The position numbers and the translations under genes are program-made. Source: Candidatus Omnitrophota bacterium (GTDB taxonomy: Bacteria; Omnitrophota; Gorgyraeia; Gygaellales; Profunditerraquicolaceae). From it: a stretch of DNA of 34,214 bases. Below, one piece after another: positions 13,346 to 34,195 of the stretch (positions are counted from its first letter, which is position 1; each line of letters opens with the position of its first letter). The notes below the pieces were generated by a model. It was not told where the DNA came from and did not search any database. It saw only the letters and a program-made list of their open reading frames with translations. The stretch is taken from positions 1 to 34,214 of the forward strand of contig JBAZOE010000001.1 of assembly GCA_041648875.1 (NCBI GenBank). Reading direction: 5' to 3'.

Positions 13346-13574
13346 GGATTTCAATCACTATTTTATTAGCTACACCATGGCCCAATACTAGAACGCTTCT
13401 GCCTACTTTAATCGCTACCGGCCCCCTTAGGCCAATATGGCTAATTTTTGTAATTTCCCTGCCCTTATAAATGCCCATACTCATAAACTTATTCTGTAAA
13501 CCAAGCCCGCCGGATATCTCCAGGATAATTCCTTTTTGATTTCCTTTCATTTGATTTAAGCTTATTTTCTTCAT
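13338..13574 (-). CDS. feoA: FeoA family iron transport protein
   Basis: 78-aa SH3-like small protein immediately upstream of and overlapping feoB. Sequence pattern (GIILEISGG...MGIYKGREITK...GPVAIKVGRSVLVLG) is typical of FeoA. Confidence 0.85.
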   Translation of the reverse strand: MKKISLNQMKGNQKGIILEISGGLGLQNKFMSMGIYKGREITKISHIGLRGPVAIKVGRSVLVLGHGVANKIVIEIHD

Positions 13575-20207: not shown

Positions 20208-20957
20208 TTATTTGCCTTCCATTTTCTTGACCGCCTCCAGGGCAATCTTAATCAGGTTGCTTTCCGCCATATAATAAAGCGGGTTCATAAAACCCATCTC
20301 TCCTGTGACCACATTATCGCTGACCGCAAGTATTGAACCAGCCTTGATCTTATATGTTTGACAAATAGTTAGCAGGGTTGAGGAAACCATATCTACCGCC
20401 CGAGCCCCCTCCTTACGTTTAGTTTCCACAATCTGGCGAGTTTCACGCAATAATGCGTCAGTTGTCCAGGCCTTTCCGCGATGGACATTTAAGCCCATAC
20501 CCTTAGCAATCTCAAATAACAAATCAGATATGCCCTTATTGCTGAGAGTCTTAAAATCCTTATCCACATAATAAGGAGTAACCCCGTCCCCGCGGATAAC
20601 CTCATCCACTATGAACAAATCCCCCACCTTAATATTCTCATCAAGTGAGCCGCAAGTGCCTACACGGATGATGTTCGGAATCCCGGCATTGCACATCACC
20701 TCTGTGGTAATAGAGGTATCCGTAGAAAATCTGCCTCCGTTTATCGCGGTTACCTTAATCCCCTCAAAGGTGCCGGTATACATGGTATATTCCATGAACG
20801 AGAAATTCTTTACGGGATTTTCGATCTTCTTCATCAATGCTTCCAGGCGATCCCTTGGCCCGGGAACAATGGCATATTTACCCACATCCTGCGGCCTAAG
20901 CTGCACCATATCCGTTAAATCTTTACCTGTTAAATGAACATCCTTCTGCATCTGCAT
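20208..20957 (-). CDS. nucleoside phosphorylase, PNP/UDP_1 family (MTA / 5'-deoxyadenosine phosphorylase candidate)
   Basis: 249 aa with a DeoD/Udp-like layout (VPGPRDR..., IRVGTCGSL, AVDMVSSTL). Lies immediately upstream of the MtnA-like gene (3-nt gap). Confidence 0.65.
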   Translation of the reverse strand: MQMQKDVHLTGKDLTDMVQLRPQDVGKYAIVPGPRDRLEALMKKIENPVKNFSFMEYTMYTGTFEGIKVTAINGGRFSTDTSITTEVMCNAGIPNIIRVGTCGSLDENIKVGDLFIVDEVIRGDGVTPYYVDKDFKTLSNKGISDLLFEIAKGMGLNVHRGKAWTTDALLRETRQIVETKRKEGARAVDMVSSTLLTICQTYKIKAGSILAVSDNVVTGEMGFMNPLYYMAESNLIKIALEAVKKMEGK

Positions 20958-21686: not shown

Positions 21687-21689
21687 ATT

Positions 21690-22019
21690 CTACGGCGAAA
21701 TTGCTCCCTGCCCCGATAGATAAGAGATCACAAAAAAACTCGCTATTCTCGCCCAACAAAAAAGGCTTAACAATAAAAAAAATATCTTCGGGAACCCTTC
21801 AAAAGCAAAAATACAGGCCGCGGTCCCAATAGCGAATATTACCGTAAAGACTGTGAAGAGCACGCTGTTAAGCCCCGGCGGGTTAAGAAACCGCAAAACG
21901 GAATATAGAATCGAATCTTCATTCTTTAAATTTACCCACCCGTCAAAGTCTACCGCGAAGACAAAACCTGAGCTGAATAAAAAGATGATTAAAAACAACA
22001 CCAAAGTTTTATTCCACAT
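21690..22019 (-). CDS. small membrane protein, unknown function
   Basis: 109 aa with an N-terminal hydrophobic signal-like segment plus two further TM helices. 3-nt gap to crcB. No family recognised. Confidence 0.5.
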   Translation of the reverse strand: MWNKTLVLFLIIFLFSSGFVFAVDFDGWVNLKNEDSILYSVLRFLNPPGLNSVLFTVFTVIFAIGTAACIFAFEGFPKIFFLLLSLFCWARIASFFVISYLSGQGAISP

Positions 22020-22063: not shown

Positions 22064-22975
22064 TTAAAGGGCAAAAATGTTTTTTAAACTCACACCCAGG
22101 ATATTTTCCTTATCCTGCTGGGATATATCAAGATTATTGACGGCTTTAATACCTGCGGCAACATCTTTCTTTGCCGGCCAGTCGCTGCCCCACAAAATAT
22201 GTTTCGGCCCCATAAGCTCAAGAGCCAGCATAAAGTTAGCTTTGGTGGCATCCCCGCTTGTATCCACGTAAATATTCTTAAAATACTCCGAAGGATTGGC
22301 CTGCAGGTCCTTGACGAAGTTTATTGAGCGCAACATGGCATAGGTTGCGTCAAAACGCTGCTTAAGATAGCAGACCGCCCCGCCAAAATAGGCAAAGATA
22401 AATTTTACCTTAGGGTACTGCCTAAGGATATCTGACATTAAAAGCTTACCTGCTGAAATCGTGGTATCAAAAACATACTCTACCACCGGAGTAAGCAAGG
22501 GGTCTTTTACCCGCTCAAAACCTATTGGGTTAACGATCTGGGAATGCACAAAAACCGGTATATCCTTCTCTTGCGCTTCCTTATATATAGGTAAGAACAT
22601 CTTATCATCCAGATAGATGCCATTATAACTTGAGGCAAGAGAGATTCCCTTAAACCCCAACTCATTGGTTGACCGCTTTAACTCTTCAAGCATATCAATA
22701 GAATTATCTACGGGCAAAACCGCAGCCCCGATAAATCTTTCGGGATAACGCTTCAGTATTTTTGCGACATTATCGTTATAAATATGGGCGACCTCGCTGA
22801 TACTGCCTAATTTCAAATGCGCATCTGATGTAGGATAACTTAAAACAGCTGCGGTAATGCCTGCCTCATCCATCATCTTCAGCTGGGCTTCAATATCACC
22901 CCACCCCTTATGAAAAAAATGGGCATTTGTGATAATCTCTTCCGGCAGCCAGTGGCTGTGCGCATCTATCAACAT
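22064..22975 (-). CDS. amidohydrolase_2 family metal-dependent hydrolase/decarboxylase (ACMSD/LigW-like)
   Basis: 303 aa. N-terminal IDAHSHW (HxH metal ligands), an internal FVHSQ His and C-terminal ILWGSDWP Asp, as in PF04909-type TIM-barrel enzymes. Confidence 0.7.
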   Translation of the reverse strand: MLIDAHSHWLPEEIITNAHFFHKGWGDIEAQLKMMDEAGITAAVLSYPTSDAHLKLGSISEVAHIYNDNVAKILKRYPERFIGAAVLPVDNSIDMLEELKRSTNELGFKGISLASSYNGIYLDDKMFLPIYKEAQEKDIPVFVHSQIVNPIGFERVKDPLLTPVVEYVFDTTISAGKLLMSDILRQYPKVKFIFAYFGGAVCYLKQRFDATYAMLRSINFVKDLQANPSEYFKNIYVDTSGDATKANFMLALELMGPKHILWGSDWPAKKDVAAGIKAVNNLDISQQDKENILGVSLKNIFAL

Positions 22976-23388
22976 TAATGCTCCGTGCTTTTTAAAATAC
23001 GCCCGGTCATTTCTTTTTCATAAAGAGACCTGATTTCTTCCAATCCCCTTCTGCCCAATTCCTTAACAATCACCTTTTCAACGGCGTCCAGTTTTATCTC
23101 CGAGAAAATAAACTCCGGGTTTGTCTTTTTCCCCTGGTCCCTTAATTCCGAACAGGCCCTCTCTTTATCTTCGATATATCTTTGAAAATCGTTAATATAT
23201 TTCTGCAGGGCGTCTTTTTCATGAGGAAGATACACGCCCAAGAGTTCTTTTTCCATTTCAGCCAGGATATCATTATCAATATCCACCTGGGTAAACTTGC
23301 GCTCGTATTTATCAAAAGTTTCCTTGGCTGTTTTATAGAGCCAAATAAAATAACGTTTCTTTAAATTCTTCTCATCCTGTTTATTCAT
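22975..23388 (-). CDS. hypothetical helical protein
   Basis: 137-aa charged, helix-prone ORF. Its stop overlaps the start of the downstream amidohydrolase_2 gene by 1 nt. No family recognised. Confidence 0.5.
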   Translation of the reverse strand: MNKQDEKNLKKRYFIWLYKTAKETFDKYERKFTQVDIDNDILAEMEKELLGVYLPHEKDALQKYINDFQRYIEDKERACSELRDQGKKTNPEFIFSEIKLDAVEKVIVKELGRRGLEEIRSLYEKEMTGRILKSTEH

Positions 23389-23401: not shown

Positions 23402-24013
23402 TTATTGTTTTACTAATTCTACCGTATCAAAATATAATGTGCCCTTGGACTCAGAAAGCGGCTCAAACTGAAAGATCTTGATCGGAAAATCAAGCTGGAG
23501 GTTTTTATCGGCGCTCTCCGGCTGCCAGTCATCGCGTACCACAAATTTGTCAAAATTGCAGACCACCCTTTTCCAGCCCTTAAAATCATCCTCTGTTACA
23601 AAACGCCAAATCTCGCCGCCATTATCTTTAATATCAAAAGCGATTCTGGCCTTAGAATCTGTCCCGTAAACATAGAAAGATATAGCATTATACTCTTCCC
23701 ATTTTATGTCCGATGGGTTAATGTTCCAATTGGCATTCTTAGCATCAAGGCCGGTACCGCGCGACACATAAATATACCCTCCTCCAACAGCATCATAAAC
23801 TACCTTCATTGCTTTATTACCGCTGTTTTTGATGTCAGTAGACTCAATTACCTCAACGCTTGAACCGTTGCCTGCGCCAAAATCAACCGTGCCATCAGGA
23901 CCTCCGGTAATTGCGATCTCAAAATCATCAACCAATAGATTATTCCCTTCTGCCAAAACAATCCCCTCGGCGGATAAAACCGCCAGTACCGCCAAAAAAA
24001 ACACTTTTTTCAT
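23402..24013 (-). CDS. secreted beta-sandwich protein, CBM11/CIA30-like (galactose-binding-like fold) candidate
   Basis: 203 aa. Signal peptide MKKVFFLAVLAVLSAEGIVLA. Beta-rich body starts LLVDDFE and ends LYFDTVELV, a pattern I associate with CBM11/CIA30-type domains. GGAGG RBS upstream. Confidence 0.4.
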   Translation of the reverse strand: MKKVFFLAVLAVLSAEGIVLAEGNNLLVDDFEIAITGGPDGTVDFGAGNGSSVEVIESTDIKNSGNKAMKVVYDAVGGGYIYVSRGTGLDAKNANWNINPSDIKWEEYNAISFYVYGTDSKARIAFDIKDNGGEIWRFVTEDDFKGWKRVVCNFDKFVVRDDWQPESADKNLQLDFPIKIFQFEPLSESKGTLYFDTVELVKQ

Positions 24014-24068: not shown

Positions 24069-24842
24069 TCAAGACGGGTGCTGCTGTTTAAACGGTATTA
24101 CCGGAGCAGTCCAGGGAGTTTGTTGATTAATTACCGCTATCTCTAAGGGACAAACATTAGCCGGTACAGTCAAGGCAAAACGTACGGCATTCTCAATGGC
24201 CTCAGTAGTCATCAGTCGCGAGGTATCATTAGTAATCTCCTGTAATTTACCGGTTAAATCCGTGTCTGTAACTCCGGGCAATATAGAAGTTACCTTGATC
24301 CCGTGATCGCGCAGCTCCCAAAATAATCCTTTGGAAAATGCCCTTAAGCCGACTTTAAGCGAGCTATAAACAATAAAGTTCCTGGGCAGCGGGTCGCATA
24401 AAGTTGAACCGGAAACCATATTGATGATCGCCCCGCTCTTATTTTTGATCATATCATTAATTACCAGCCGGATTAGCCGGACATACCCCAGGTAATTGGT
24501 GTGGGCTAACCTTTCAAAATCCTCAATTGGCTGCTCCTGAAAAGGATATTGGCTGGATACTCCGGCATTATTAATCAATATATCAACTTTACCGAACTCA
24601 TCCTTTGCGCTTTTAACCAGGTTTTCCAGATCCTCTAATTTTGTCACATCACAAGCTACCGGCAAAACCTCAACTTTAAATTTACCGGATATTTCTTCCG
24701 CGGTTTCCTTTAAAGGACCGAAGTTGCGGGCGCCAATAACTAAATTTATCCCTAAACCCGCAGCGGTACAGGCAAGGGCCTTACCAATACCGCGGCTGGC
24801 TCCGGTAACAATCGCTGTCTTTCCTTTTAGCTCCAAACTCAT
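24069..24842 (-). CDS. SDR-family oxidoreductase (FabG-like ketoreductase candidate)
   Basis: TGASRGIGKA cofactor motif, NNAG, and catalytic S...YSSLK. I prefer the ATG at 24842 (MSLELKGK), preceded by GGAGGAG with a 4-nt spacer, over the upstream ATG at 24863, whose codons read through that RBS. Confidence 0.85.
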   Translation of the reverse strand: MSLELKGKTAIVTGASRGIGKALACTAAGLGINLVIGARNFGPLKETAEEISGKFKVEVLPVACDVTKLEDLENLVKSAKDEFGKVDILINNAGVSSQYPFQEQPIEDFERLAHTNYLGYVRLIRLVINDMIKNKSGAIINMVSGSTLCDPLPRNFIVYSSLKVGLRAFSKGLFWELRDHGIKVTSILPGVTDTDLTGKLQEITNDTSRLMTTEAIENAVRFALTVPANVCPLEIAVINQQTPWTAPVIPFKQQHPS

Positions 24843-24929
24843 AGTTCTCCTCCTTACCCACAAAGGGGGTACACGACGCAGAGGCGTCGCACTTGTTTCT
24901 CAAATAAAACAATGTGCCGGCCACTACCT

Positions 24930-26060
24930 TTAAGTCCGGGTACTGTTGCCACTTGCCAAACGGCTTACATATAATAAAATTAATAACCCCAAACCAAAAA
25001 CCAAAAAACCCAGGACAAAACTCTTTTGCATAATTAAACCACCAAGACATACACCAATGCCTCCGGAGATAAAACGCACCCCGCTGTTTAAGCTGGCTGC
25101 CTCATTTAAAAATTTCTCCGGCAAATCCGTAAGTATCGTAGACAAACCCACATGATTAAATGCCCAGCCTAAACCCCAAATAACCATTACCAAAACAAGT
25201 AAGCCTAAGGGTAGTTTTACCAAAAGCAAAAAAACACCTAATACCATAAAGGCGATACCTAAATTCACCACTTTTAAACGACCTATTGAATCCGCAAGAC
25301 GCCCTCCCCAAACCTCTCCGAATATACCACTTAAACTAGTCAGAGTGATCAACATGCTAATAGTGAATTGGCCTAAGTTTAACTGGGTTGAGAAAAAAAC
25401 TCCCAGCCACTGCTGCACCGCATGATAAATTAAACTAATAAAAAAGATATAACTGAATATCTTTACAACTTTCTTGTTTCTAAAAGCCTCTAAATAACCC
25501 AAGCGGAAATTCTCCGTTTTTTCTTTAAAACTGGGAAGATGAATATACATAAACACCCAGAGTATAAAACCGCTTGCCGCCGGGATAATAAACATCAACC
25601 TCCAGTTAATTATCCCGCTAAGGAATAGCCCCAATAGAGATGCTACAAATGTAGAGCCAAAAAATAAACCTATATAACGGCCGCGCCTTGTTTCATCCAG
25701 GTGTCTGGCGATTAAAATAAGGCCAAGCGGGATAACCGATGCGCCAAATAACCCCATCATAAACCTAGCAACAAAAAGCGTAGAAATATTCTGTGATATG
25801 CCTGCTTGAAGATTAGACAGGGAAAACAAAAATATGCAGAATAGTTCAACCTTGCGGGCATCAAAGGCGCGCACCAATGGGCCATAGAAAAATGCCGCCA
25901 CCCCATATGGAATCATATAGAACCAGATTATTTTGCCTACTACAAATTGAGAAAGAACAAAGTCAGTTGCGATAGACGGTATTAACGCCGCGGATGCGGC
26001 TACATTAAAAGATAAAACCGCCCCCTCTAAACAAAGAATAACAAATGTGGCTGTATTCAC
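24930..26060 (-). CDS. MFS transporter
   Basis: 376 aa with about 11-12 TM helices. The loop motif (DETRRGRYIG) sits in the MFS-typical position. GTG start in a GTGA overlap with the upstream gene. Confidence 0.8.
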   Translation of the reverse strand: MNTATFVILCLEGAVLSFNVAASAALIPSIATDFVLSQFVVGKIIWFYMIPYGVAAFFYGPLVRAFDARKVELFCIFLFSLSNLQAGISQNISTLFVARFMMGLFGASVIPLGLILIARHLDETRRGRYIGLFFGSTFVASLLGLFLSGIINWRLMFIIPAASGFILWVFMYIHLPSFKEKTENFRLGYLEAFRNKKVVKIFSYIFFISLIYHAVQQWLGVFFSTQLNLGQFTISMLITLTSLSGIFGEVWGGRLADSIGRLKVVNLGIAFMVLGVFLLLVKLPLGLLVLVMVIWGLGWAFNHVGLSTILTDLPEKFLNEAASLNSGVRFISGGIGVCLGGLIMQKSFVLGFLVFGLGLLILLYVSRLASGNSTRT

Positions 26061-26497
26061 CTGGCCGCTTCTTTTTCAATAATCTCTTTAAAGATTTTCA
26101 GGTTATGCTGCGAGCCTTCGTTGATAAAACCTTCAACCTGTTCATCATTAAACTTGGCCTTATCATCCATATGGAAATGCTGAATCCAGGTCAACTCGAC
26201 ACCTTCGGGCTTAGGCGTATAAAGCCAGATAATCTTCATATATTCAAAGGGGAACATTGGTTCCTGGCGCTGGGCATAAGCAAAATAATTATCTTTAAAA
26301 AGTAGCCTCCAGGACTGCCACGACTTATCATCTTCATCCGTCAGGCGGAATATAATTTTATTGGCCTCTTTTTTAACCACTTCTGCTTTTTTATATTCCT
26401 GGCCGAATAATTCTGTCCAGCGCGGGATATTATTGGATATATCGAATACTAAATCATAAGGCGCATTAATAATTATTGAATTGCAAGTATGCCCCAT
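26057..26497 (-). CDS. SRPBCC-superfamily polyketide cyclase/dehydrase-like protein
   Basis: 146 aa. The N-terminus (SIIINAPYDLVFDISNNIPRWTELF) and overall length match the Polyketide_cyc/cyc2 helix-grip fold. Confidence 0.65.
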   Translation of the reverse strand: MGHTCNSIIINAPYDLVFDISNNIPRWTELFGQEYKKAEVVKKEANKIIFRLTDEDDKSWQSWRLLFKDNYFAYAQRQEPMFPFEYMKIIWLYTPKPEGVELTWIQHFHMDDKAKFNDEQVEGFINEGSQHNLKIFKEIIEKEAAR

Positions 26498-26510
26498 CTA
26501 TTCCTCCTTA

Positions 26511-27311
26511 TTAATCTAATATAGCCACTACCCTGGCCCAAGCTGCCCCGGTATTCTTTATCCGGACCGGAAAACAAATAACTTTAAACCCAAAATCAGG
26601 AAGCTTCTCCAAATTAGCTAATCTCTCTATATGGATGAATTCTTTCTTGCGGCCGTAAAAATGCGCCGGGTAAAATGTTTTAGGGTCTTTTGTCTTTAAA
26701 AATTCTCCCAACATAAATCTATAAGGCCGGTCAATACCCATGGTATCTACCCCGAAAATCTTTACTCCGCAAGCCAGCAGATAATCTATGGCCGAGACGT
26801 CAACACCCGGATAATCTGAAAAATATCTGGGGCCGCCATAAAGCTTATCCGCGCCGGTCTGCAATAATACAATATCCAACGGCTTAAGCCGGTAATTTAT
26901 TTTATCAAGCGCTGATTTTATATCGTGCGCATTAATTGTTTCATCGGGTTTCTTATGTACCAGATTCAACTTTACGCCGTTTTGATAACAACATTCCAGG
27001 GGGATCTCATCCGCTGTTTTTGAAGAACGGCCCTCTGACCTTGAACCGTAATGAAAGGAGTAATCCAGATGTGTTCCTATGTGTACCGGGGCATGCACAA
27101 TCTCCAAAGACAAGAATTCTTCGTCAGGCAGCTGCTCCTTTTTTATAATACGCATGCCCAAAGCGTATTTTATTTTGCCCAAGACCGTCTTCCCCATGAT
27201 TACACGGTTAAACTTGGCAACCCCGGCCTTATGAGATATGCGCTCGATATCCACCTTGTGCACTTCAAAGGCCTTTTCGTCAATAGGCAAACTTAAATCA
27301 ATAATTTTCAT
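26511..27311 (-). CDS. cyclase-family protein (PF04199 'putative cyclase' / arylformamidase fold)
   Basis: 266 aa with the signature HxGTHxDxxxH (HAPVHIGTHLDYSFHYG) and GVDTMGID. ATGA overlap with the ACP gene. Confidence 0.75.
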   Translation of the reverse strand: MKIIDLSLPIDEKAFEVHKVDIERISHKAGVAKFNRVIMGKTVLGKIKYALGMRIIKKEQLPDEEFLSLEIVHAPVHIGTHLDYSFHYGSRSEGRSSKTADEIPLECCYQNGVKLNLVHKKPDETINAHDIKSALDKINYRLKPLDIVLLQTGADKLYGGPRYFSDYPGVDVSAIDYLLACGVKIFGVDTMGIDRPYRFMLGEFLKTKDPKTFYPAHFYGRKKEFIHIERLANLEKLPDFGFKVICFPVRIKNTGAAWARVVAILD

Positions 27312-27538
27312 TTCACTAATTTTGACTGGATATTGTTTGCGATATCGCTTATTGTTGAATTCTTGGTTATTTCTTTAACGTTAAGCTTTACGCCGAATGA
27401 TTTCTCCAGGGCAATCACTGATTCCACCATTTCAGTGGAATCAACCCCGATGCTGTTTTGTAAAGAAACATCATCTTTCAACTCTTCGATCTTTACCTTC
27501 AATAAATTCGACAATACCTCTTTAACTTTATCCTTCAT
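27308..27538 (-). CDS. acyl carrier protein
   Basis: 76 aa with the phosphopantetheine attachment motif GVDSTEMVE and a four-helix ACP-like pattern. AGGAGG RBS upstream. Confidence 0.85.
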   Translation of the reverse strand: MKDKVKEVLSNLLKVKIEELKDDVSLQNSIGVDSTEMVESVIALEKSFGVKLNVKEITKNSTISDIANNIQSKLVK

Positions 27539-27546
27539 CTATCCCT

Positions 27547-27578
27547 CCTGCATTCTATATACTATATTATACCTACTG
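27547..27578 (-). repeat. conserved intergenic block, copy A (upstream of ACP gene)
   Basis: Minus strand CAGTAG-GTATAAT-ATAGTATATAGAAT-G-CAGG. It shares CAGTAG, a 14-nt identical core and CAGG with copy B at 29083-29107. Confidence 0.7.
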
Positions 27579-27581
27579 CCT

Positions 27582-29042
27582 TTATATCTGCACTTCACCC
27601 TTTGTCGCGGCCGCTTCCCATTTATTAATACCATTCATGACATCCTGGAAACAAAGCTTTGCAAGCGGGTCAAAATTACTCTCCATAATACGGTTAATTC
27701 TGCCGGGCTTTGAAAAAAACTCACGCATACACCATGAACCCAGCCTACCCAGATCTTCCGTAGAGAGATGATCGGTAGGGATTACCGGATGTAAGAAATC
27801 CCATTGGCTAAAATCCACCTCTTTGGGATCCATCCAGTGTTTTTTTAATGCAATCCTCCACATAGGTGAATTCGGGGCAGGGGTAACATAACCTACCCAC
27901 AGGACATCCGGATCCACCTGATCAGTGAACTCAAAACGCTGTTTGATAATTTCTTCGGTATCATAATCAAAACCCATCATGATATCGGCAACGATAGCGA
28001 TATCATTCTTACGGAACATCTCAATGGTCTTTTTGATCTGATCAATAGTAATGCCCTTGGCAATTCTCTTAAGCTCCGACTGCGTGGTAACCTCAATGCC
28101 GAAAACACCCATAAACAAACCGTTTTCTTTCATAAAGGGGAGGATTGATTCACAATTGACCCAATCAATAGCGCGGCCTAAAGATACCCATTTAATCGGA
28201 TTATTGGATGCCTTTTTAAGTTCGCAGAATTTCTGCACTCTTTTAGGGTCTACATTAAAATTATCATCCTGGATAACTACAACCTTAACCCCATATTTTC
28301 TATGCAGAAGGTTCAATTCTTCCATTACCCTTTCCGGAGACTTTGCCCGCCATTTCAAAAAATCCGATGGTGAGCGTGGGTCAAATTGGTCCCATTCATA
28401 ACAAAAGGTACACGCTGAAGGGCAACCGCGGGATGTAACCATATCTACAAACGGCTTCCAATAAGTATGCCCTACATATTTATCCATCGGGAATAAATCA
28501 TACGCCGGCAAAGGCAGTTTATCCAGATCTTCCATAAGAGGCTTATGCGGCCCCATAACAATTGCGCCATCAATGCGGGAAGTGACCCCGCCTACATCCT
28601 TAAGCGGTTTGTTCTTATCTATTGCCTCAACTAAATCCCCGAAAGACTCCTCTTCACCCATAACTACAAAATCAACTGCGGGATTCTCCTCCAGTGTAGG
28701 CACAGGCATCGCCGAATACCATAATCCACCGAGGATTATTTTTGTCTTAGGCAAAGCTTTCTTAATCCCGATAGCCGCCTCTTTAAAATGACGTAAAACT
28801 CCATAGCCGCCGTAACCATGCAGTTGCTCACCCATGACCACGATATCAGGATTTTTAAGCTTAACTTGTTCGATCAACTGCTCCATAGGTATTTGATCGG
28901 CCTTGCCGTCGATAACAGCTACATCTTCATAGCCTCTTTCGCGTACATACGCTGCCCAATGCGCGTAAAGCTGGTTTGGAGATCTATGTATTCCATGAGT
29001 TGCCCAGGCTCCGACTTTCGGCATAACAAACAATATCCTCAT
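27582..29042 (-). CDS. B12-binding-domain radical SAM enzyme (class B)
   Basis: N-terminal Rossmann-like cobalamin-binding domain (RILFVMP...DIVVMGE...KIILGG). Radical SAM motif SRGCPSACTFCYE. I prefer ATG at 29042 (MRILFV), preceded by AAGGAGAGG, over the GTG at 29063 in the ORF track. Confidence 0.85.
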   Translation of the reverse strand: MRILFVMPKVGAWATHGIHRSPNQLYAHWAAYVRERGYEDVAVIDGKADQIPMEQLIEQVKLKNPDIVVMGEQLHGYGGYGVLRHFKEAAIGIKKALPKTKIILGGLWYSAMPVPTLEENPAVDFVVMGEEESFGDLVEAIDKNKPLKDVGGVTSRIDGAIVMGPHKPLMEDLDKLPLPAYDLFPMDKYVGHTYWKPFVDMVTSRGCPSACTFCYEWDQFDPRSPSDFLKWRAKSPERVMEELNLLHRKYGVKVVVIQDDNFNVDPKRVQKFCELKKASNNPIKWVSLGRAIDWVNCESILPFMKENGLFMGVFGIEVTTQSELKRIAKGITIDQIKKTIEMFRKNDIAIVADIMMGFDYDTEEIIKQRFEFTDQVDPDVLWVGYVTPAPNSPMWRIALKKHWMDPKEVDFSQWDFLHPVIPTDHLSTEDLGRLGSWCMREFFSKPGRINRIMESNFDPLAKLCFQDVMNGINKWEAAATKGEVQI

Positions 29043-29082
29043 TTCCTCTCCTTTTTTAACCACTTAACTAGATTTTATTTTC

Positions 29083-29107
29083 CCTGTATTCTATATACTA
29101 TCTACTG
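29083..29107 (-). repeat. conserved intergenic block, copy B (upstream of radical SAM gene)
   Basis: Minus strand CAGTAG-ATAGTATATAGAAT-A-CAGG; same block as copy A minus the 7-nt GTATAAT insert. Confidence 0.7.
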
Positions 29108-29111
29108 TTTT

Positions 29112-30341
29112 TTATGGTTTTTCAACTACCAAAGCTGAATTAATACCACCACGTCCGCGTGAGATAATCAAAGCTTTATTTACTTTACATTCCCTGGCCT
29201 GCTTAGCCACATAATTTATATCATTTAAAACCGGAGTATCCAGATTTAATGTAGGTGGAATCAGGCTATGCTCCATAGACAAAAGCGCGATAATCATATC
29301 CAGCGCGCCGCTTGCCCCCAACAGGTTACCGAACATGGATTTCGGGCAGCTTGCCGGAATATTTTTCAGGGCATCTCCAAAAACCAGCTTTAAGGCCTTA
29401 ATTTCAGAGTCGTCCCAAAGATCAACCGCAAGCCCATCCAGGCTGATGTAACCGATTTCTTCAGGCTTGGCTTTAGCGTCATTAAAAGCCATATTTATAG
29501 CCCGGGCCAATTCCTTGCCGTCGGCAGCAGGATTAATCCTATCCACTCCGTCGCAACTTGTGCCGTATCCGCTGACATAGCCTAAAATGTTTGCCCCCCT
29601 ATCCTTAGCCCTCTGAATGTTCTCCAACACCACAATACCTGAACCCTCGCCAATAACAAAACCACTGCGGCCTTTGTCAAATGGCCTATATGCAGCCTGA
29701 GGGTCTTCATTGCGCGTAGAAAGCGCCCCGTATGTATTGCAGCATAATAATGCATAAGGAGTAACCGGCGCCTCCATCCCTCCGGCTAAGATCATATTCA
29801 ATTTGTTTTTATATAAAACTTTCCTGGCATACCCTAATGCCATAAGCGAACTTGCCCGGTCGCTGACCACGGTTTTACTAAAACCTTTTATACCGTAATA
29901 GATAGATACCTGGCCCTGAGGGGCAGCGGGAAACCAGGCAGAAGCCATATAAGGGGAAACACCCTCCCTGCCTTCTAAATACAAGTCCCTTAACTCTGTT
30001 TCGGCATAAAGCCAGCCGCCAATGGCATTACCCAAGAAAATACCGACGAGGTTCGGATCTTCATTTTTTATATCTATGCCCGCATCCTGCAAGGCAAGCT
30101 CTGAAGCAACCAGCGCCATATGCGAAAAGGCGTCAATTTTCTTGAGCAGTCTTTCGGATATGTGGCTGTATTTTTCCAGGTCGTCAATCTGCCCTGCTAT
30201 ATGCGCAGGGTATTTTGAAGCATCAAAGCGCGTGATCTTTTTAATAAATGAACGACCGCTTTTAATATTTGCCCAAAACTGCCGTTTACCGATGCCTGAC
30301 GGGCTGACTACCCCTATCCCTGTAACTGCTATCTTTTCCAT
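29112..30341 (-). CDS. ketosynthase-beta / chain-length-factor-like protein lacking the Cys-His-His triad
   Basis: 409 aa, collinear with the upstream KS. At the KS positions C (TGCTAG), H (NAHGSS) and H (IGHPL) it reads R (SDRASS), D (SLDGLA) and N (FGNLL). TAATG coupling with the KS-alpha gene. Confidence 0.8.
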   Translation of the reverse strand: MEKIAVTGIGVVSPSGIGKRQFWANIKSGRSFIKKITRFDASKYPAHIAGQIDDLEKYSHISERLLKKIDAFSHMALVASELALQDAGIDIKNEDPNLVGIFLGNAIGGWLYAETELRDLYLEGREGVSPYMASAWFPAAPQGQVSIYYGIKGFSKTVVSDRASSLMALGYARKVLYKNKLNMILAGGMEAPVTPYALLCCNTYGALSTRNEDPQAAYRPFDKGRSGFVIGEGSGIVVLENIQRAKDRGANILGYVSGYGTSCDGVDRINPAADGKELARAINMAFNDAKAKPEEIGYISLDGLAVDLWDDSEIKALKLVFGDALKNIPASCPKSMFGNLLGASGALDMIIALLSMEHSLIPPTLNLDTPVLNDINYVAKQARECKVNKALIISRGRGGINSALVVEKP

Positions 30342-31603
30342 TATCCACCGAACCTTTTTAAAATTAGCGAGGAGTGTATCCCGGAGAAACCGCTGCTGGT
30401 TTTAATAATCATATTCACTTTTTTCTCGATTGCCTGATTGGGAATATAATACAAGTCGCACTGCGGATCTTTTTCCTCCTGGTTTATTGTAGGAGGAAGG
30501 ATATTTTTTTCAAAGATCATGCTGGCGATGGTCATCTCAATAGCGTTTGCCGCAGCCAAAGGATGGCCGATCATGGATTTAAATGAACTGATGGGCAGCT
30601 TATAAGCGTACTCCCCAAAAATCGCCTTATAAGCATTGCTCTCAAAAATATCATTCATACGCGTGCTTGAACCATGGGCATTGATATAATCAATATCCGC
30701 CGGTTTGACATTAGCATCTTTTAATGCCAGGCCGATACAGGTTTCCATGGCTTGTCCGTCGGAGGGAAGATCAGTCATATGAAAGGCATTGCAGCTGGTG
30801 CCAAAGCCTAAGACCTCGCAATAAATCGGCGCGTTACGTTTTAAGGCATGATTTAATTCTTCCAAAACCAAGATGCCCGCCCCCTCCCCCAATACAAACC
30901 CATCCCGCTTATTGTCAAATGGCCGGGATGCTTTTTGCGGCTCATCATTATGCACAGATAAAACATTCACCACATCAAAAGCGCCAAAGGTAATCGGAGT
31001 AAGCGGCGCCTCCGCCGCACCGCAAATCATTACATCCTGTTCGCCGTCCTGGATAGTCTCCAGGCCAAACCCCAGGGAATCCGTGCCGGCAGTGCATCCC
31101 GTAGAAATAGTATTGCAAATTCCTTTTAAACCGAAACGCGCGCTGATTTCTATTGAAGGAGTATTAAACATCGCCGCGTCATAAAGATCAGGCCGCACCA
31201 GTGACGGGTCAATTGGTTTCTTGCCGTCTTCAGTAACTAAGGCAAACTCTTCCTCCATATATTTAGTACCACAGATAGCGTTTGCCAGGCAAACCCCCAA
31301 GCGCTCAGGGTCTTCTTTTGATAAATTCAACTTGCTGTCTTCAATTGCCATTTTGCCGGCGGCTACCCCAAACTGAACATAACGGTCCATGCGCATAGCT
31401 TCTTTATGGTTCAAGCCCAGTTTAAAAGGGTCAAAATCACTGACCTGAGAGGCAATCTTGGTGTTAAAAACCGACACATCAAAACCTTCAACTAAGCGTA
31501 CTCCGGATTTTCCGCCTGAAAACCCCTCCCAAGCGTTTTTTTTACCTATGCCGTTAGGAGAGATTACCCCTATGCCGGTAATAACCACTCTGCGTTTAGA
31601 CAT
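30341..31603 (-). CDS. beta-ketoacyl-ACP synthase, KS-alpha type (FabF/type II PKS-like), catalytically intact
   Basis: 420 aa. N-terminus RRVVITGIGVISPNG, active-site Cys in STGCTAGTDS, His in INAHGSSTRMND, and His in SMIGHPLAAA. Confidence 0.85.
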   Translation of the reverse strand: MSKRRVVITGIGVISPNGIGKKNAWEGFSGGKSGVRLVEGFDVSVFNTKIASQVSDFDPFKLGLNHKEAMRMDRYVQFGVAAGKMAIEDSKLNLSKEDPERLGVCLANAICGTKYMEEEFALVTEDGKKPIDPSLVRPDLYDAAMFNTPSIEISARFGLKGICNTISTGCTAGTDSLGFGLETIQDGEQDVMICGAAEAPLTPITFGAFDVVNVLSVHNDEPQKASRPFDNKRDGFVLGEGAGILVLEELNHALKRNAPIYCEVLGFGTSCNAFHMTDLPSDGQAMETCIGLALKDANVKPADIDYINAHGSSTRMNDIFESNAYKAIFGEYAYKLPISSFKSMIGHPLAAANAIEMTIASMIFEKNILPPTINQEEKDPQCDLYYIPNQAIEKKVNMIIKTSSGFSGIHSSLILKRFGG

Positions 31604-31606
31604 GAA

Positions 31607-32212
31607 TTATTTATTCTCCTCTATTCTTCTAACCTTGAAAATAATATTCCCGCCGTCAGGACAGGTAACCGTATCAATAGAATCAGGATTGTCCATGAAG
31701 AAAAATTTCGCCCCGAAGTTCAGGGCAAATAATGCCGGGAATGCCGTATGGAATGCCGCCCCGCAAAAACCAGGGATGCATTTTAAACCTTGAGTCTCCC
31801 ATTTATCGCCAACCTTATACCCGAAGCTGCATTTACCGGATGCCCCGACTACCTCAATAATCATCTTTTTAGGATTCGGGCCTTTATGTTCCGGGTCGCG
31901 GGGGACAACATCCAGCTTTCCTGTCTTATCCAAGATCTCAGCTTTAAACTCCAGTTTACCTCCGTCAGGGCAAGTAACTAAAAGCGAACGCTGGTTGTCG
32001 CGGAACCCGAATTGCGCCCCAAAACTCAAGGCATATATGACCGGGAAAAGCGCGTGCGCCAATCCTAAGCAAAAATACTGAGGCGCGTGGGTAAAATCCT
32101 CGAGATAAATTTCATCTCCAATCTTATACCCATGGTAACATTCACCAAAAACCTGCGTAACCGTAAGTTTTAGTTTTGGAAATGGAGTATTTACCTTGCT
32201 ATTTTGGCTCAT
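31607..32212 (-). CDS. tandem-duplicated TIGR04076-like protein (two ~90-aa Cys/His-containing modules)
   Basis: 201 aa. The halves align: G.C..GYK.GD...FC...H..FP...AL.FGA.F.F.DN..S...VTCPDGG...FK. The module resembles my memory of the uncharacterised TIGR04076 family. ATGA overlap with the upstream gene. Confidence 0.55.
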   Translation of the reverse strand: MSQNSKVNTPFPKLKLTVTQVFGECYHGYKIGDEIYLEDFTHAPQYFCLGLAHALFPVIYALSFGAQFGFRDNQRSLLVTCPDGGKLEFKAEILDKTGKLDVVPRDPEHKGPNPKKMIIEVVGASGKCSFGYKVGDKWETQGLKCIPGFCGAAFHTAFPALFALNFGAKFFFMDNPDSIDTVTCPDGGNIIFKVRRIEENK

Positions 32213-33222
32213 TTTAACTGGACAACTTCTTGGATTTTCTCAAACATTTCAAGTTTGCTATAAAACCTGTTATTCTTCTCAACCTGGTGCACTAAATCAA
32301 CCAAAGCGCTATTTAACGGCGCGCAAACATTGTTCTTTTCGGCAAGGCGCATGAATTCACCGTTAATATAATCAATCTCGGAGCTGCGGCCGCGCATAAT
32401 GCTTTGCAGGACAGAGCCGTAAAGCGGCTCCTTGCTTAGGTTTTTCATGGTTTGCGAGAAAATAGCAGCTGCTTGAGCGGCTGGCAAAGAAACTAATTTG
32501 GTAATGTTTTCCAAGGGAAAACCCGGCAAAGAAACTAATTTTATACCTGCCTTATCAATAACCTCAAGAGCTTCTTTCCAGATAGCAATGCTTATCCGGC
32601 TTATATCCAGATCGCTAAAAACCTCCTGCATGCTTTTGCCCAATATCGCCGGCAGACAGTTATTGGCATTAGCGAATATTTTTAAAAACTTCATACCGGT
32701 AATATTCTCGGCAACTACAACAGGGAATGCCTTGCCTAAAACATGGCTTAGGCTTAATAATTTCTCCGGCCCTTGCTTATCAAAAGGCCAGCCTATTATC
32801 CAGGACCCCTCAAAATTATGCACTAACTTGGCCGGCTCTAAATAAGTAGAGCCGAACATAACAATACTAGATACTATGTTTTCCCTGGGCAGGTATTTAG
32901 CAACAATATGATCCGCCTGCACGCCATTTTGGATAGTTAAGATTACCGCGTTGCGAACCAAACTGATATTATCTTTTATGGCATATTCGATATCCTGGGT
33001 TTTAGTGGCCAGGATAACTAATTCCGGGAAATAATTAAGCTGCTCGGAAATCTTAATTTCAACCTTAAAGCTACCCCGGGCCCCCGTTATTTGCAGCCCT
33101 TTTTCCCGGATCGCCTTTACCGAATCCGTCCGGCCGACCAAAGATACATCCTGACCCTCTAATTTAAGATAGGCTGCCACAAGGCAGCCAATCGCCCCTG
33201 ATCCAATAACCCCTATACGCAT
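32209..33222 (-). CDS. 2-dehydropantoate 2-reductase family (ApbA/PanE-like) NAD(P)-dependent oxidoreductase
   Basis: 337 aa. N-terminal MRIGVIGSGAIGCLVAAYL Rossmann motif. C-terminal domain with SVLQSIMRGRSSEIDYINGEF, typical of the KPR family. Confidence 0.75.
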   Translation of the reverse strand: MRIGVIGSGAIGCLVAAYLKLEGQDVSLVGRTDSVKAIREKGLQITGARGSFKVEIKISEQLNYFPELVILATKTQDIEYAIKDNISLVRNAVILTIQNGVQADHIVAKYLPRENIVSSIVMFGSTYLEPAKLVHNFEGSWIIGWPFDKQGPEKLLSLSHVLGKAFPVVVAENITGMKFLKIFANANNCLPAILGKSMQEVFSDLDISRISIAIWKEALEVIDKAGIKLVSLPGFPLENITKLVSLPAAQAAAIFSQTMKNLSKEPLYGSVLQSIMRGRSSEIDYINGEFMRLAEKNNVCAPLNSALVDLVHQVEKNNRFYSKLEMFEKIQEVVQLK

Positions 33223-33224
33223 AG

Positions 33225-33491
33225 TTAACTCTGATTTTTCGGAAAACCGTATTTCTTGTAATCAAAGCCGCTTTGCTCCAAAAGACGGACCATCATGCCG
33301 TAAAAAGGCGAAGGTACGTCGGAAAAAAAAGCGGCAATTACATCCTGCTCTTCAACCTGGGTGGATTTACGTAAAAGCGCGTTATTTTGCGCCTGTTGCA
33401 CAACCACTGATTCGGTAATCCGGCGGTGAAATACAGGAATCCTGGATATCAACGCCTTAAACTTCTCTTCGGTTTTAGTTTCCCAGATCAT
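33225..33491 (-). CDS. small PCP_red-like (protochlorophyllide reductase subunit B C-terminal-like, PF08369) domain protein
   Basis: 88 aa. W-x2-x-EEKFKALISRIPVFHRRITESVV...QVEEQDV resembles the W..eAe..l..iP.FvR pattern of PF08369. First gene after the promoter. Confidence 0.45.
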   Translation of the reverse strand: MIWETKTEEKFKALISRIPVFHRRITESVVVQQAQNNALLRKSTQVEEQDVIAAFFSDVPSPFYGMMVRLLEQSGFDYKKYGFPKNQS

Positions 33492-33539
33492 TAGCTAACC
33501 TCATTAATAATAGAAAGCTGAATTTAAAACATAAACCCT

Positions 33540-33563
33540 AATATAGTAAAATTTTACTATATT
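33540..33563. promoter_or_regulatory. 24-bp perfect palindrome, candidate operator (PadR?)
   Basis: AATATAGTAAAATTTTACTATATT equals its own reverse complement. It starts 10 nt downstream of the -10 hexamer of the cluster promoter. Confidence 0.6.
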
Positions 33564-33573
33564 TTGTTTTATT

Positions 33574-33602
33574 ATTTTATTATTTAAGAATGCCCTTGTC
33601 AA
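33574..33602 (-). promoter_or_regulatory. near-consensus sigma70 promoter of the PKS-like operon
   Basis: Minus strand TTGACA (33602-33597), exact 17-nt spacer, TAAAAT (33579-33574). Located in the 188-nt gap between padR and the first cluster gene. Confidence 0.65.
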
Positions 33603-33679
33603 GTAAGAAATCAAGCACCTTATAGCTTTTATCCAGCGCAGTCCTTGATCGAGCGATAGCGAGATCGAGGATAAAGGAT

Positions 33680-34195
33680 TTAAATTTCCTTAAGCAACGT
33701 ACTAAGAAACTCCGACTCTGCCTGAAGCAGGCAAAGATTGTGCTCAAGTATTCGCAATAAAGAGATTGAATTCTTAAGCTTCTTGGCTTTAAGCGTCTCT
33801 TCTATGCTAGAGGATATCTTCTTTAATATTGTAAGCCTGGCAGCCAGTCTGCGCCGGCTTAAGGCGGGCTTTAAATAATCAAGGAAATAGAGGCTTAAGT
33901 CTAAGCTGAATTGCGGACGCTTAAAATTAAGCAGGCTTTTATTCAACAGCTCGTCAAAACGGGCCTTACCTTTTTTAGTAAGGCTGTAGACAAACCGCTC
34001 CGGCCTCTTTCCTTCTTTGCCGACATACTTGTCAAGCAAGCCTTTTTTTTCTAAAACTTTTAAGGGATAATATATTGATTTTAAATCAACGCCGGCAAAA
34101 AGTGAGAGGATCTGCCGTATCCTGATTTTAATTTCATAACCGTGTTTGGGGCTTTGGCGCAATAAACCTAATAACAAAAACTCCTGTTCAATCAT
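33680..34195 (-). CDS. PadR-family transcriptional regulator
   Basis: 171 aa. N-terminal winged-helix pattern LLGLLRQSPKHGYEIK...YYPLKVLEKKGLL...VYSLTKKGKARF, with a C-terminal helical extension. Confidence 0.85.
   Translation of the reverse strand: MIEQEFLLLGLLRQSPKHGYEIKIRIRQILSLFAGVDLKSIYYPLKVLEKKGLLDKYVGKEGKRPERFVYSLTKKGKARFDELLNKSLLNFKRPQFSLDLSLYFLDYLKPALSRRRLAARLTILKKISSSIEETLKAKKLKNSISLLRILEHNLCLLQAESEFLSTLLKEI

Follow-up and report, generated by a model that had tools for sequence, protein, structure and literature searches.

A probable anaerobe-type type II polyketide synthase operon conserved across Omnitrophota

What would a pair of ketosynthases (KSs) make in a member of an uncultured phylum when it is encoded beside a radical enzyme, two polyketide cyclases and families of unknown function? 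The question is raised by a 34,214-nt stretch of DNA from a Candidatus Omnitrophota bacterium (GenBank assembly GCA_041648875.1, contig JBAZOE010000001.1, positions 1 to 34,214), a complete contig of a metagenome-assembled genome (MAG), referred to here in its entirety as the window. Type II polyketide synthases (PKSs) have been studied almost only in aerobic actinomycetes, and the way in which strict anaerobes prime, oxidize and tailor their products is largely obscure. A preliminary description, made from the letters of the window and its open reading frames (ORFs), had proposed a type II PKS-like gene cluster linked to a PadR regulator. The analysis presented here suggests that the locus is probably an anaerobe-type type II (aromatic) PKS operon and a conserved trait of Omnitrophota; no characterization of this Omnitrophota operon was found in the literature that could be searched.

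The KS pair carries most of this argument. Alignment to the AntD and FabF structures, together with a multiple alignment, bore out the active sites as they had been read previously, with an intact Cys/His/His triad in KS-alpha and Arg/Asp/Asn at the same positions in KS-beta, or chain length factor (CLF), which adjoins KS-alpha and is translationally coupled to it via TAATG. The top matches of KS-alpha among solved structures were AntD (6smo_B, 377 bits) and the Act KS (1tqy_A, 370 bits), with the best FabF at 356 bits. In a neighbor-joining tree of 33 sequences, the window KS-alpha clusters with its counterparts from other Omnitrophota, from Nitrospirota and Clostridium and from two classical aerobic clusters, as well as with AntD; the window CLF clusters with the CLFs from those same PKS clusters, and the FabF-like proteins, which have an ACA/His/His site, branch outside both groups. 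The scores of KS-alpha and CLF against the fabF model TIGR03150 (460.9 and 379.8 bits, respectively) lie under its cutoff of 493.75. Tree placement and sub-cutoff scores thus uphold the earlier assignment of the pair to the type II PKS type rather than to housekeeping fatty acid synthesis (FAS). The outcome that the preliminary description had named as counting against it, a pair nested within housekeeping FabF beside a fab operon, was not found. Canonical CLFs carry a glutamine that is thought to decarboxylate malonyl-acyl carrier protein (ACP) for priming; alignment places arginine there in the window CLF. Within the same clade this position is arginine in the Clostridial CLFs and serine in the Nitrospirota CLF, and the wider family often reads "DRA". 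With its KS-alpha triad, coupled CLF lacking the cysteine, dedicated ACP, two types of cyclase and KS/CLF branching, the predicted system passes on every type II PKS feature that could be examined, apart from the CLF glutamine.

The gene set surrounding the pair is conserved to an extent that chance does not explain. In a scan of one genome per GTDB species, 484 genomes contained a relative of the CLF, and the best 80 of these are Omnitrophota with 77-95% identity (some titled Planctomycetales or "bacterium"). More than 120 protein clusters, formed at 90% identity, contain CLFs with 82-95% identity to that of the window, and all source-named ones are from Omnitrophota. Synteny was counted by tblastn of the window proteins against 39 loci with at least 4 kb upstream and at least 7.5 kb downstream of the CLF. 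The 88-aa protein (s88), the ketopantoate reductase (KPR)-family oxidoreductase, the tandem TIGR04076 protein, KS-alpha, CLF, the B12-binding radical S-adenosylmethionine (SAM) enzyme (rSAM), the ACP, both cyclases and the short-chain dehydrogenase/reductase (SDR) were found in 39/39 loci. These ten genes from s88 to SDR, leaving the major facilitator superfamily (MFS) transporter gene apart, are also syntenic in all 39, so that the arrangement is not accidental. Beyond them, the Amidohydro_2 enzyme was present in 38/39 loci, the 137-aa protein in 35/39, the nucleoside phosphorylase in 34/39, the MFS transporter in 31/39, the CBM_11-like protein in 26/39 and PadR in 24/39. The check on synteny across genomes that had been suggested therefore gave a clear answer: the set is strongly syntenic. 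The rSAM is the best-conserved protein of the cluster, with a median identity of 90%, compared to 84% for KS-alpha, 84% for the TIGR04076 protein and 82% for the CLF; because the median of the neighboring phosphorylase is comparable (84%), the PKS genes appear to be as constrained as their salvage-type neighbors. The more distant loci L007 and L091, whose CLFs are 61-67% identical to that of the window, retain the core. No SDR was found in L091 or in the Nitrospirota clusters, and the SRPBCC cyclase is 74% identical to its L091 orthologue. As judged from these comparisons, the deep Omnitrophota core is a block of five salvage-type genes together with rSAM, s88, KPR, the TIGR04076 pair, KS/CLF/ACP, the two cyclases and Amidohydro_2, and the SDR, MFS, CBM_11-like protein, 137-aa protein and PadR are later or variable additions. 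The conserved core thus contains genes of unknown function, and the variable parts include SDR, MFS and PadR.

Two other explanations of the KS pair can be weighed on this evidence. One would make the two proteins housekeeping FabF paralogues with coincidental neighbors, a reading prompted by the top NCBIfam match of both proteins, which is fabF (TIGR03150), and by the presence of accA upstream. There is next to no chance of this, considering that both proteins score below the fabF cutoff, that one partner is without the catalytic triad, that both fall outside the FabF-like group in the tree, that none of fabD, fabG, fabZ, fabI and fabH is found nearby and that the neighbor genes are conserved across three phyla; housekeeping FAS was rejected on these scores, triad loss, tree and gene context. 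The other would make the locus a ladderane-like or other highly reducing type II FAS/PKS lipid cluster, in line with an analogy drawn in the preliminary description. The locus does combine a KS pair and its dedicated ACP with a B12 radical SAM enzyme, antiSMASH-style rules give this label to clusters with KS and radical SAM genes in Omnitrophota MAGs, and "ladderane" biosynthetic gene clusters have been reported, and found to be expressed, in such MAGs (PMC9902471). In addition, the anammox amxFabF2/amxFabFmut pair forms a KS/CLF-like heterodimer (bioRxiv 10.64898/2026.05.19.726425), in which, as here, one active KS is paired with a paralogue that has no triad; the anammox cluster likewise includes a dedicated ACP as well as radical SAM genes. 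In the anammox pair, however, the mutant gene comes first and its cysteine is replaced by Val/Thr, whereas the order here is KS-alpha then CLF and the replacement is arginine, and the anammox cluster is without cyclases. The window rSAM does not match the ladderane rSAM family (66.9 bits against TIGR04072, cutoff 360), two families of aromatic-polyketide cyclase are kept in 39/39 loci, and profile searches of the window found no FabZ/FabA dehydratase or enoyl reductase. KS-alpha also scores 370-377 bits with the Act and Ant KSs, as against 282 and 213 bits with the 9s5h chains, which are unnamed KS entries that may be the anammox pair. The ladderane analogy does not survive the rSAM score and the aromatic cyclases, and a ladderane cluster, rejected on these two grounds and on the absence of FAS dehydratase and reductase partners, is a very improbable identity for the locus. 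A published catalogue of CLFs lists Candidatus Omnitrophica among the phyla with KS-CLF matches and does not analyze them further (PMC10132072).

The relatives of the KS pair outside the phylum help to place it. Among representatives at 50% identity, the Omnitrophota CLFs fall into one cluster, whose representative is 59% identical to the window CLF; the next relatives are 39-45% identical and carry the "DRA" motif at the lost cysteine. A profile built from these relatives retrieved proteins of Clostridium beijerinckii, Nitrospirota and others, and the nearest relatives of the KS pair from beyond Omnitrophota are those of Nitrospirota and C. beijerinckii. In three Nitrospirota-type loci (L005, L008 and L092, two of them titled Nitrospirota), the genes are arranged as s88 - tungsten-type aldehyde ferredoxin oxidoreductase (AFOR) - KPR - TIGR04076 - TIGR04076 - KS - CLF - ACP - cyclase - SRPBCC - FMN_red, the FMN_red gene following the SRPBCC cyclase gene in all three. 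They therefore share with the window s88, KPR, two TIGR04076 domains, KS, CLF, ACP and both cyclases, at 43-60% identity; the KPR stands at the same position in the Omnitrophota and Nitrospirota clusters (46-51% identity), and the SRPBCC cyclase is 53% identical to its Nitrospirota orthologue. Unlike the window, the Nitrospirota-type clusters are without rSAM, five-gene block, SDR and MFS, with no Amidohydro_2 in view. Their own extras are the AFOR, FMN_red, a Peptidase_U32 protein fused to an s88-type domain and an additional SRPBCC-like protein, the latter two preceding the array in L008 and L092, and two FAD amine-oxidase-like genes. These last genes, which are also phytoene-desaturase-like, were observed ahead of the U32::DUF2621 gene at L008:1-2573 and L092:64-2969.

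Clostridium beijerinckii is genetically tractable and makes clostrubin. Its locus L004 (GCA_013296325.1) and a second Bacillota locus, L006, have the order KS - CLF - TIGR04076::ACP - cyclase - SRPBCC - phosphopantetheinyl transferase (PPTase) - CMD - DUF362 - DUF169 - TIGR04076, followed further on by Amidohydro_2 - ACP - hydrolases - KSIII. Going by the species, L004 is very probably the clostrubin (clr) cluster. The CLFs ClrB and WexB have been assigned to an "ancestral" C20 clade of non-actinomycete CLFs (PMC7693217). Orthologues of seven window components occur in L004 at 34-47% identity: KS-alpha (47%), CLF (44%, its Cys likewise replaced by Arg), ACP (34%), PF04199 cyclase (46%), a single-domain SRPBCC protein (40%), Amidohydro_2 (35%; 35-36% over the C. 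beijerinckii and Bacillota clusters) and two TIGR04076 domains. The preliminary view that the gene combination matches no characterized pathway was thus too strong, and the clostrubin-type cluster is, on sequence comparison, the closest characterized relative. Like the window cluster, it comes from an anaerobe and has no oxygenase genes. It differs in being without B12 rSAM, s88, KPR, SDR and the five-gene block, and in having the TIGR04076::ACP fusion, KSIII, a second ACP, two PPTases, CMD, DUF362, DUF169 and two FrsA-like hydrolases; none of its starter and tailoring genes (KSIII, second ACP, DUF362, DUF169, CMD, FrsA-like) is found in the window. Because the tailoring and starter gene sets differ, the two products are expected to differ as well.

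Relatives that lie further off include two aerobic loci, L089 (Ktedonobacteraceae) and L090, which encode ABM, Anthrone_oxy, P450, a TcmI-type cyclase and malonyl-CoA:ACP transacylase (MCAT) and no TIGR04076 protein. Their CLFs (L089:10001-11242 and L090:10001-11233) align "EAA" at the expected glutamine, possibly owing to a one-column shift of the alignment. The ant cluster (Photorhabdus AQ-256), whose AntD is the best solved-structure match of KS-alpha, and the den cluster (Dendrosporobacter dendrubin) share with the window a minimal PKS, a ketoreductase, an SRPBCC aromatase and an OxyN-type cyclase. Their aromatase is a didomain TcmN-TcmN protein, in contrast to the single-domain protein of the window, and no TIGR04076 protein or radical SAM enzyme is among the listed den genes. 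To our knowledge, neither ant nor den has a TIGR04076, radical SAM, KPR or DUF2621 protein. The AntI lyase and AntG/AntB, which are specific to ant, presumably have no counterparts in the window cluster.

The rSAM is the member of the cluster whose chemistry bears most directly on how an aromatic polyketide could be tailored without oxygen. Translation probably begins at an ATG that lies seven codons past the listed GTG; the B12 domain is N-terminal, and a CxxxCxxC motif lies at residues 214-221. The alignments to the BchE and HpnJ models span nearly the whole enzyme, with scores far below the respective equivalog cutoffs (BchE, TIGR02026, 210.7 bits against 481.35 over residues 9-438; HpnJ, 157.5 bits against 578 over residues 46-461), so that BchE is its closest family only, and no close relative was found in the PDB. 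Its predicted substrate is a polyketide in place of a tetrapyrrole, hopanoid or quinone precursor. Class B methyltransferase models reach at most 114 bits; because the BchE and HpnJ models far outscore them, the methylation guessed at in the preliminary description is not favored, and the reading of the rSAM as a class B methyltransferase by default was demoted on these scores, not excluded. BchE is the anaerobic Mg-protoporphyrin monomethyl ester cyclase, which, without O2, uses water to introduce a keto oxygen at an activated methylene. The Peptidase_U32 family includes UbiU/UbiV and TrhP, oxygen-independent hydroxylases, and a weak match to TrhP was also seen. The orthologous clusters carry different tailoring enzymes, a BchE-like enzyme in Omnitrophota, U32::s88 in Nitrospirota and Anthrone_oxy/ABM in the aerobes, and because these appear to be swapped for one another, oxygen-independent oxygenation of the aromatic polyketide is proposed as the task of the rSAM. 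We regard this as possible and put it forward tentatively; methylation or another radical rearrangement are the alternatives. In L091 (15606-21233), Amidohydro_2 is directly followed by another B12 radical SAM gene, which shares 36% identity with the first and is itself followed by a three-subunit molybdenum enzyme of the xanthine dehydrogenase family. Such molybdenum enzymes are another type of oxygen-independent hydroxylase.

Two families of unknown function accompany these enzymes. Each half of the tandem TIGR04076 protein has the invariant pattern Cys-x21/22-Cys-x4-His-x28-Cys-x-Asp, and the signature Cys...Cys-x4-His...Cys-x-Asp is common to all TIGR04076 domains in these clusters, which points to a Zn or Fe-S site. 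The number of domains per cluster is two in the three Nitrospirota-type loci, in the two Clostridial loci and in the Omnitrophota tandem genes, supplied by two single genes in Nitrospirota and by a TIGR04076::ACP fusion plus one single gene in C. beijerinckii; the divergent locus L007 is without a recognizable TIGR04076 protein. Because one domain is fused to the ACP in Clostridium, the pair is proposed to be a metal-binding (Cys3His) PKS accessory subunit that would work at the ACP. An AlphaFold2 model of the tandem protein (predicted local distance difference test, pLDDT, 72) gave no PDB fold match with E < 0.2, a sequence search of the PDB found nothing, and the literature offers annotations and guesses only for TIGR04076. 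The association of TIGR04076 domains with this PKS clade, including the fusion with the ACP seen in Clostridium, is, as far as these comparisons indicate, a new finding.

The preliminary description had called the 88-aa protein PCP_red-like. The protein itself is there as described, but the family label fits less closely: all 17 members of the s88 family match DUF2621 (best E 4e-7) and 10 of the 17 match PCP_red (best E 3e-5), a domain of another enzyme of the chlorophyll pathway that s88 resembles. A single-sequence model of s88 is all-helical at low confidence (pLDDT 63) and has no fold match, and a profile search of the PDB with s88 returned noise only. A homologous domain forms the C-terminal 80 residues of the Peptidase_U32 protein in the Nitrospirota loci L008 and L092 (DUF2621, 30.7 bits, above cutoff). 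Because s88 is thereby linked to three different redox enzymes (rSAM, U32 and AFOR), an adaptor or substrate-binding role fits it, and s88 is proposed to be such a partner of the oxygen-independent tailoring enzyme. The fusion of an s88-type domain to U32 in rSAM-less Nitrospirota clusters also appears as a new finding, and a literature search turned up no account of the gene set or of either link, TIGR04076 to ACP or s88 to U32.

The second distinctive part of the locus is the block of five genes encoding a nucleoside phosphorylase, an MtnA-type isomerase, a class II aldolase, an aldehyde dehydrogenase and an acyl-CoA ligase. The block, counted by its phosphorylase, adjoins the PKS genes in 34/39 loci, and in L007, L044, L070, L087 and L091 it lies upstream of them in the same array. 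In L044, L070 and L087 the CoA ligase heads an 18-gene same-strand array behind the operator and the aldehyde dehydrogenase gene is directly upstream of the s88 gene; in L067, L079 and L085 it is the CoA ligase that is directly upstream of s88; and in L007 and L091 the order is ligase - phosphorylase - MtnA - aldolase - aldehyde dehydrogenase - rSAM - s88 - KPR. Phosphorylase, MtnA-type isomerase and class II aldolase together make up the dihydroxyacetone phosphate (DHAP) shunt, which salvages 5'-deoxyadenosine and methylthioadenosine (MTA), by-products and inhibitors of radical SAM enzymes (PMC6079011, PMC10986504, PMC12632272). All three occur together in the window in this conserved order. 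Within the sample the block occurs with rSAM and is absent from the rSAM-less Nitrospirota and Clostridium loci, which supports a predicted role in the dedicated salvage of rSAM by-products. It differs from the plain shunt in having an aldehyde dehydrogenase, a FadD/MenE-like ligase and an SCP2 domain on the aldolase, and in being co-operonic with a PKS. The SCP2 domain was found in 12/12 aldolase orthologues (best E 1e-10) and covers residues about 200-331 of the window aldolase. At positions 13589-15257, a gene for RlmN (370 bits, cutoff 290) begins 9 nt after the CoA ligase gene and is overlapped by a GDSL lipase gene.

The unit itself is larger than the eleven genes originally described. 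Every one of these minus-strand ORFs was found at the coordinates claimed, the junctions (2 nt, ATGA, 3 nt, TAATG, 48 nt, 43 nt, ATGA, 13 nt and GTGA) were reproduced, and the last gap measures 87 nt with ATG 24842 as the SDR start, or 66 nt with the upstream TTG. Profile searches agree with the families that had been named (PadR, KPR, TIGR04076, the two KSs, B12-rSAM, ACP, PF04199, SRPBCC, MFS and SDR), the KPR exceeding the TIGR00745 cutoff of 141 bits; the quoted motifs GVDSTEM in the ACP and HIGTHLDYSFH in the PF04199 cyclase are present. As had been noted, no MCAT, hotdog dehydratase, thioesterase or PPTase domain was found by profile searches across the whole window. The end of the cluster at 24069, however, was placed too early, because three more genes continue the operon downstream of SDR, encoding the CBM_11-like, 137-aa and Amidohydro_2 proteins, with short gaps or overlaps and in synteny with relatives; these three genes and the linked five-gene block need to be added to the unit (Table 1). 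The Amidohydro_2 family includes non-oxidative aromatic-acid decarboxylases. No family was matched in profile searches by the 137-aa protein or by a 109-aa protein. The latter is a membrane ORF that sits with crcB and DUF190 genes of the fluoride-export type between the Amidohydro_2 and phosphorylase genes (20980-22019). As crcB and DUF190 occur at this position in just 9/39 loci, with a response-regulator gene there in L001, they were rejected as biosynthetic parts, as was the CBM_11-like protein, which is variable and, with a hydrophobic N-terminus read as a signal peptide, secreted. The minus strand carries every sizeable ORF of the window.

Table 1. Coordinates of the control region, the putative PKS operon and the linked five-gene block in the window.
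Feature	Position	Strand	Basis or remark
PadR-family regulator, 171 aa	33680..34195	-	Pfam PadR E 3e-13
Sigma-70-like promoter TTGACA-17-TAAAAT	33574..33602	-	11/12 positions
Perfect 22-bp palindrome (ATATAGTAAAA followed by TTTTACTATAT), putative PadR operator	33541..33562	.	just downstream of -10 box
s88, 88 aa, DUF2621/PCP_red-like family, cysteine-free	33225..33491	-	profile search
KPR-family NAD(P)H oxidoreductase, 337 aa	32209..33222	-	Pfam ApbA + ApbA_C; TIGR00745 168.9 bits
Tandem TIGR04076 protein, 201 aa	31607..32212	-	98.7 bits against cutoff 33, two stretches
KS-alpha, 420 aa	30341..31603	-	Cys/His/His triad intact
KS-beta/CLF, 409 aa	29112..30341	-	Arg/Asp/Asn replacing Cys/His/His
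B12-binding radical SAM enzyme, BchE/HpnJ-like	27582..29063	-	Pfam B12-binding + Radical_SAM
ACP, 76 aa, GVDSTEM	27308..27538	-	PP-binding E 4.5e-11
PF04199 cyclase, 266 aa, HxGTHxD motif	26511..27311	-	Pfam
SRPBCC (TcmN-type) aromatase/cyclase, single-domain, 146 aa	26057..26497	-	Pfam
MFS transporter, DHA efflux type, 376 aa, variable member	24930..26060	-	profile search
FabG-like SDR ketoreductase	24069..24863	-	start probably ATG 24842
CBM_11-like beta-sandwich protein, 203 aa, variable member	23402..24013	-	Pfam CBM_11 E 9e-18
137-aa charged protein	22975..23388	-	helical by eye from sequence only
Amidohydro_2 enzyme, 303 aa	22064..22975	-	Pfam; TAATG overlap with 137-aa gene
PNP_UDP_1 nucleoside phosphorylase, block gene 1	20208..20957	-	profile search
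MtnA-type (5-deoxy- or methylthio-)ribose-1-phosphate isomerase	19287..20204	-	TIGR00524 208 bits against cutoff 186
Class II aldolase with C-terminal SCP2 lipid-binding domain	18289..19284	-	profile search
NAD(P)-dependent aldehyde dehydrogenase	16805..18292	-	profile search
FadD/MenE-like acyl-CoA ligase	15267..16805	-	PRK06187 423 bits; acetate-CoA ligase model 225 bits

Control of the operon by PadR, suggested earlier, gained support from its promoter region. The promoter that had been pointed out is the best sigma-70-like match of the region, and a palindrome overlooked before lies directly behind it, with a PadR gene alongside, as expected of a PadR-regulated operon. The 16-bp core of this palindrome, TAGTAAAATTTTACTA, is present at the operon head in 63 loci (61 Omnitrophota species genomes), about 70 bp upstream of the s88 gene and with no more than one mismatch in the core. 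In L044, L070 and L087 it shifts with the operon head and lies upstream of the CoA ligase gene, in L087 directly after the PadR gene. Such non-coding conservation across species whose proteins differ by at least 20% argues that the palindrome is a functional operator, and PadR is its obvious partner, to which it is predicted to bind. Rfam searches found no riboswitch in the leader or elsewhere in the window, a fluoride riboswitch included, and only two tRNAs. The ATG of the PadR gene overlaps (ATGA) the stop codon of an upstream ORF that is truncated by the contig end (34177-34214). Since the counterpart of this ORF in L001 is accA, which likewise overlaps PadR (L001:5195-6654), the regulator is seemingly co-translated with a gene for malonyl-CoA supply.

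Combined, these components suggest a route in which KS-alpha/CLF would build a poly-beta-keto chain on the ACP from malonyl units, with malonyl-CoA supply perhaps linked to the operon via the upstream accA and with MCAT and PPTase borrowed from elsewhere in the genome. The TIGR04076 pair would act at the ACP as the Cys3His metal-binding subunit. A keto group may then be reduced by the SDR, the KPR or both, the two cyclases would fold and aromatize the chain, and Amidohydro_2 would remove the terminal carboxyl. The rSAM, aided by s88, would carry out an oxygen-independent C-H functionalization, for which oxygenation of a benzylic or anthrone-type carbon to a quinone or phenol is favored over methylation. 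The five-gene block would recycle the released 5'-deoxyadenosine (or MTA) to DHAP and an acyl-CoA, the MFS transporter would export the product, and PadR would repress the operon until a phenolic ligand binds.

Several observations weigh against this scheme or parts of it. The arginine at the canonical priming position of the CLF is joined by the lack of a KSIII or any other obvious priming enzyme in the window. The rSAM is far under the BchE cutoff (211 against 481 bits), which makes its chemistry a guess, and class B radical SAM enzymes are most often methylases. The identification of L004 with clostrubin is drawn from the species. Neither the SCP2 domain of the aldolase nor the FadD/MenE-like ligase is predicted by a plain 5'-deoxyadenosine shunt, and the Nitrospirota clusters retain an aldehyde-oxidizing AFOR without any rSAM, so that an aldehyde/acid step may belong to the pathway itself. 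Finally, the cluster is as conserved as its salvage-type neighbors (rSAM median 90%), for which reason a core physiological role fits better than a classical antibiotic.

Two further explanations grow out of these points. As salvage leaves the SCP2 domain, the FadD/MenE-like ligase and the Nitrospirota AFOR unexplained, the block may instead feed or prime the PKS, by making its starter or trimming an intermediate such that the resulting acyl-CoA primes the Gln-less KS/CLF. A 5'-substituted 5'-deoxyadenosine may undergo phosphorolysis, isomerization and aldol cleavage to DHAP and X-CH2-CHO, which may then be oxidized to X-CH2-COOH and ligated to CoA, where X could be methylthio (from MTA) or a hydrophobic group added by radical adenosylation, of which HpnH/HpnG and MqnE are examples. 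This agrees with arrays in several lineages that hold both block and PKS behind one operator and others in which the ligase lies directly upstream of s88, with a ligase that is FadD/MenE-like and not acetyl-CoA-synthetase-like, with the conserved SCP2 hydrophobic-ligand domain, with a CLF lacking the priming glutamine where no KSIII is present, and with the Nitrospirota AFOR beside s88/KPR, the position held by the aldehyde dehydrogenase in L044-type arrays. It is nevertheless distinctly unlikely. The cluster has no HpnH- or MqnE-type adenosylating rSAM, and we know of no B12-binding rSAM enzyme that adenosylates; the Nitrospirota and Clostridium clusters do without the block, though their CLFs are also Gln-less (Ser and Arg). 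The gene trio, moreover, matches the well-established DHAP shunt (PMC6079011). The remaining explanation concerns the product, which may be a core redox-active polyketide quinone/quinol, made without oxygen and serving as a membrane electron carrier or redox shuttle rather than as a secreted antibiotic; the operon would then belong to the primary metabolism of Omnitrophota, which would refine rather than exclude the PKS reading. At least 80 species genomes retain the operon, which is surrounded by accA and genes for SAM salvage, with protein identities (rSAM 90%, KS-alpha 84%, TIGR04076 84%) that equal or exceed those of the salvage-type neighbors, and MFS and PadR are dispensable (31/39 and 24/39 loci). 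The FMN_red family, found in the Nitrospirota versions, includes quinone reductases; oxygen-independent hydroxylase families are associated with the cluster; and the SCP2 domain fused to the aldolase recalls UbiT and UbiJ, which use an SCP2 domain to hold quinone intermediates. A quinone of this kind is still somewhat unlikely, as profile searches of the window found neither a prenyltransferase nor any other enzyme for membrane anchoring, most loci have an efflux-type MFS, and PadR-type repression suggests inducible and not constitutive expression. The boldest combination of these ideas would have Omnitrophota and, by a second version, Nitrospirota make a polyketide quinone or phenol without oxygen, with TIGR04076 as an obligatory ACP-associated Cys3His heterodimer of anaerobe-type type II PKSs, s88 delivering the planar polyketide to interchangeable enzymes (the BchE-like rSAM or U32), the acyl-CoA of the block feeding or priming the PKS beyond mere detoxification, and the product serving these nanobacteria as a core redox cofactor instead of an antibiotic; as a whole it is improbable.

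The rest of the contig contains further genes. A typical MoxR-associated operon, with a MoxR AAA+ ATPase, a DUF58 protein and an 899-aa TgpA_N/Big_2 protein, occupies positions 6591-11459, and FeoA and FeoB are encoded at 11618-13574. At 368-4425 lie genes for a 760-aa protein with a spermidine-synthase domain, a DsbD_2 membrane protein and a radical SAM enzyme (Radical_SAM + Fer4_12). Spermidine synthase is an MTA-producing type of enzyme, and these genes are thus further sources of MTA and 5'-deoxyadenosine near the salvage block. Of two tRNA genes at the contig end, at 112-184 (-) and 275-357 (+), the latter is the sole recognized plus-strand gene, the other tRNA and all family-assigned ORFs being on the minus strand, and the GC skew is negative throughout the window.

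If the assignment proposed here is right, the operon represents a deeply conserved anaerobic type II PKS in a whole uncultured phylum of very small bacteria, and its deep conservation suggests a physiological role rather than that of an occasional antibiotic. It would correct the automatic "ladderane" label that surveys have given to such clusters in Omnitrophota MAGs. Two families of unknown function become testable as PKS components, TIGR04076 in a culturable Clostridium. The comparisons between phyla point to interchangeable oxygen-independent oxygenation modules, and they give a concrete hypothesis for how anaerobes may oxygenate aromatic polyketides.

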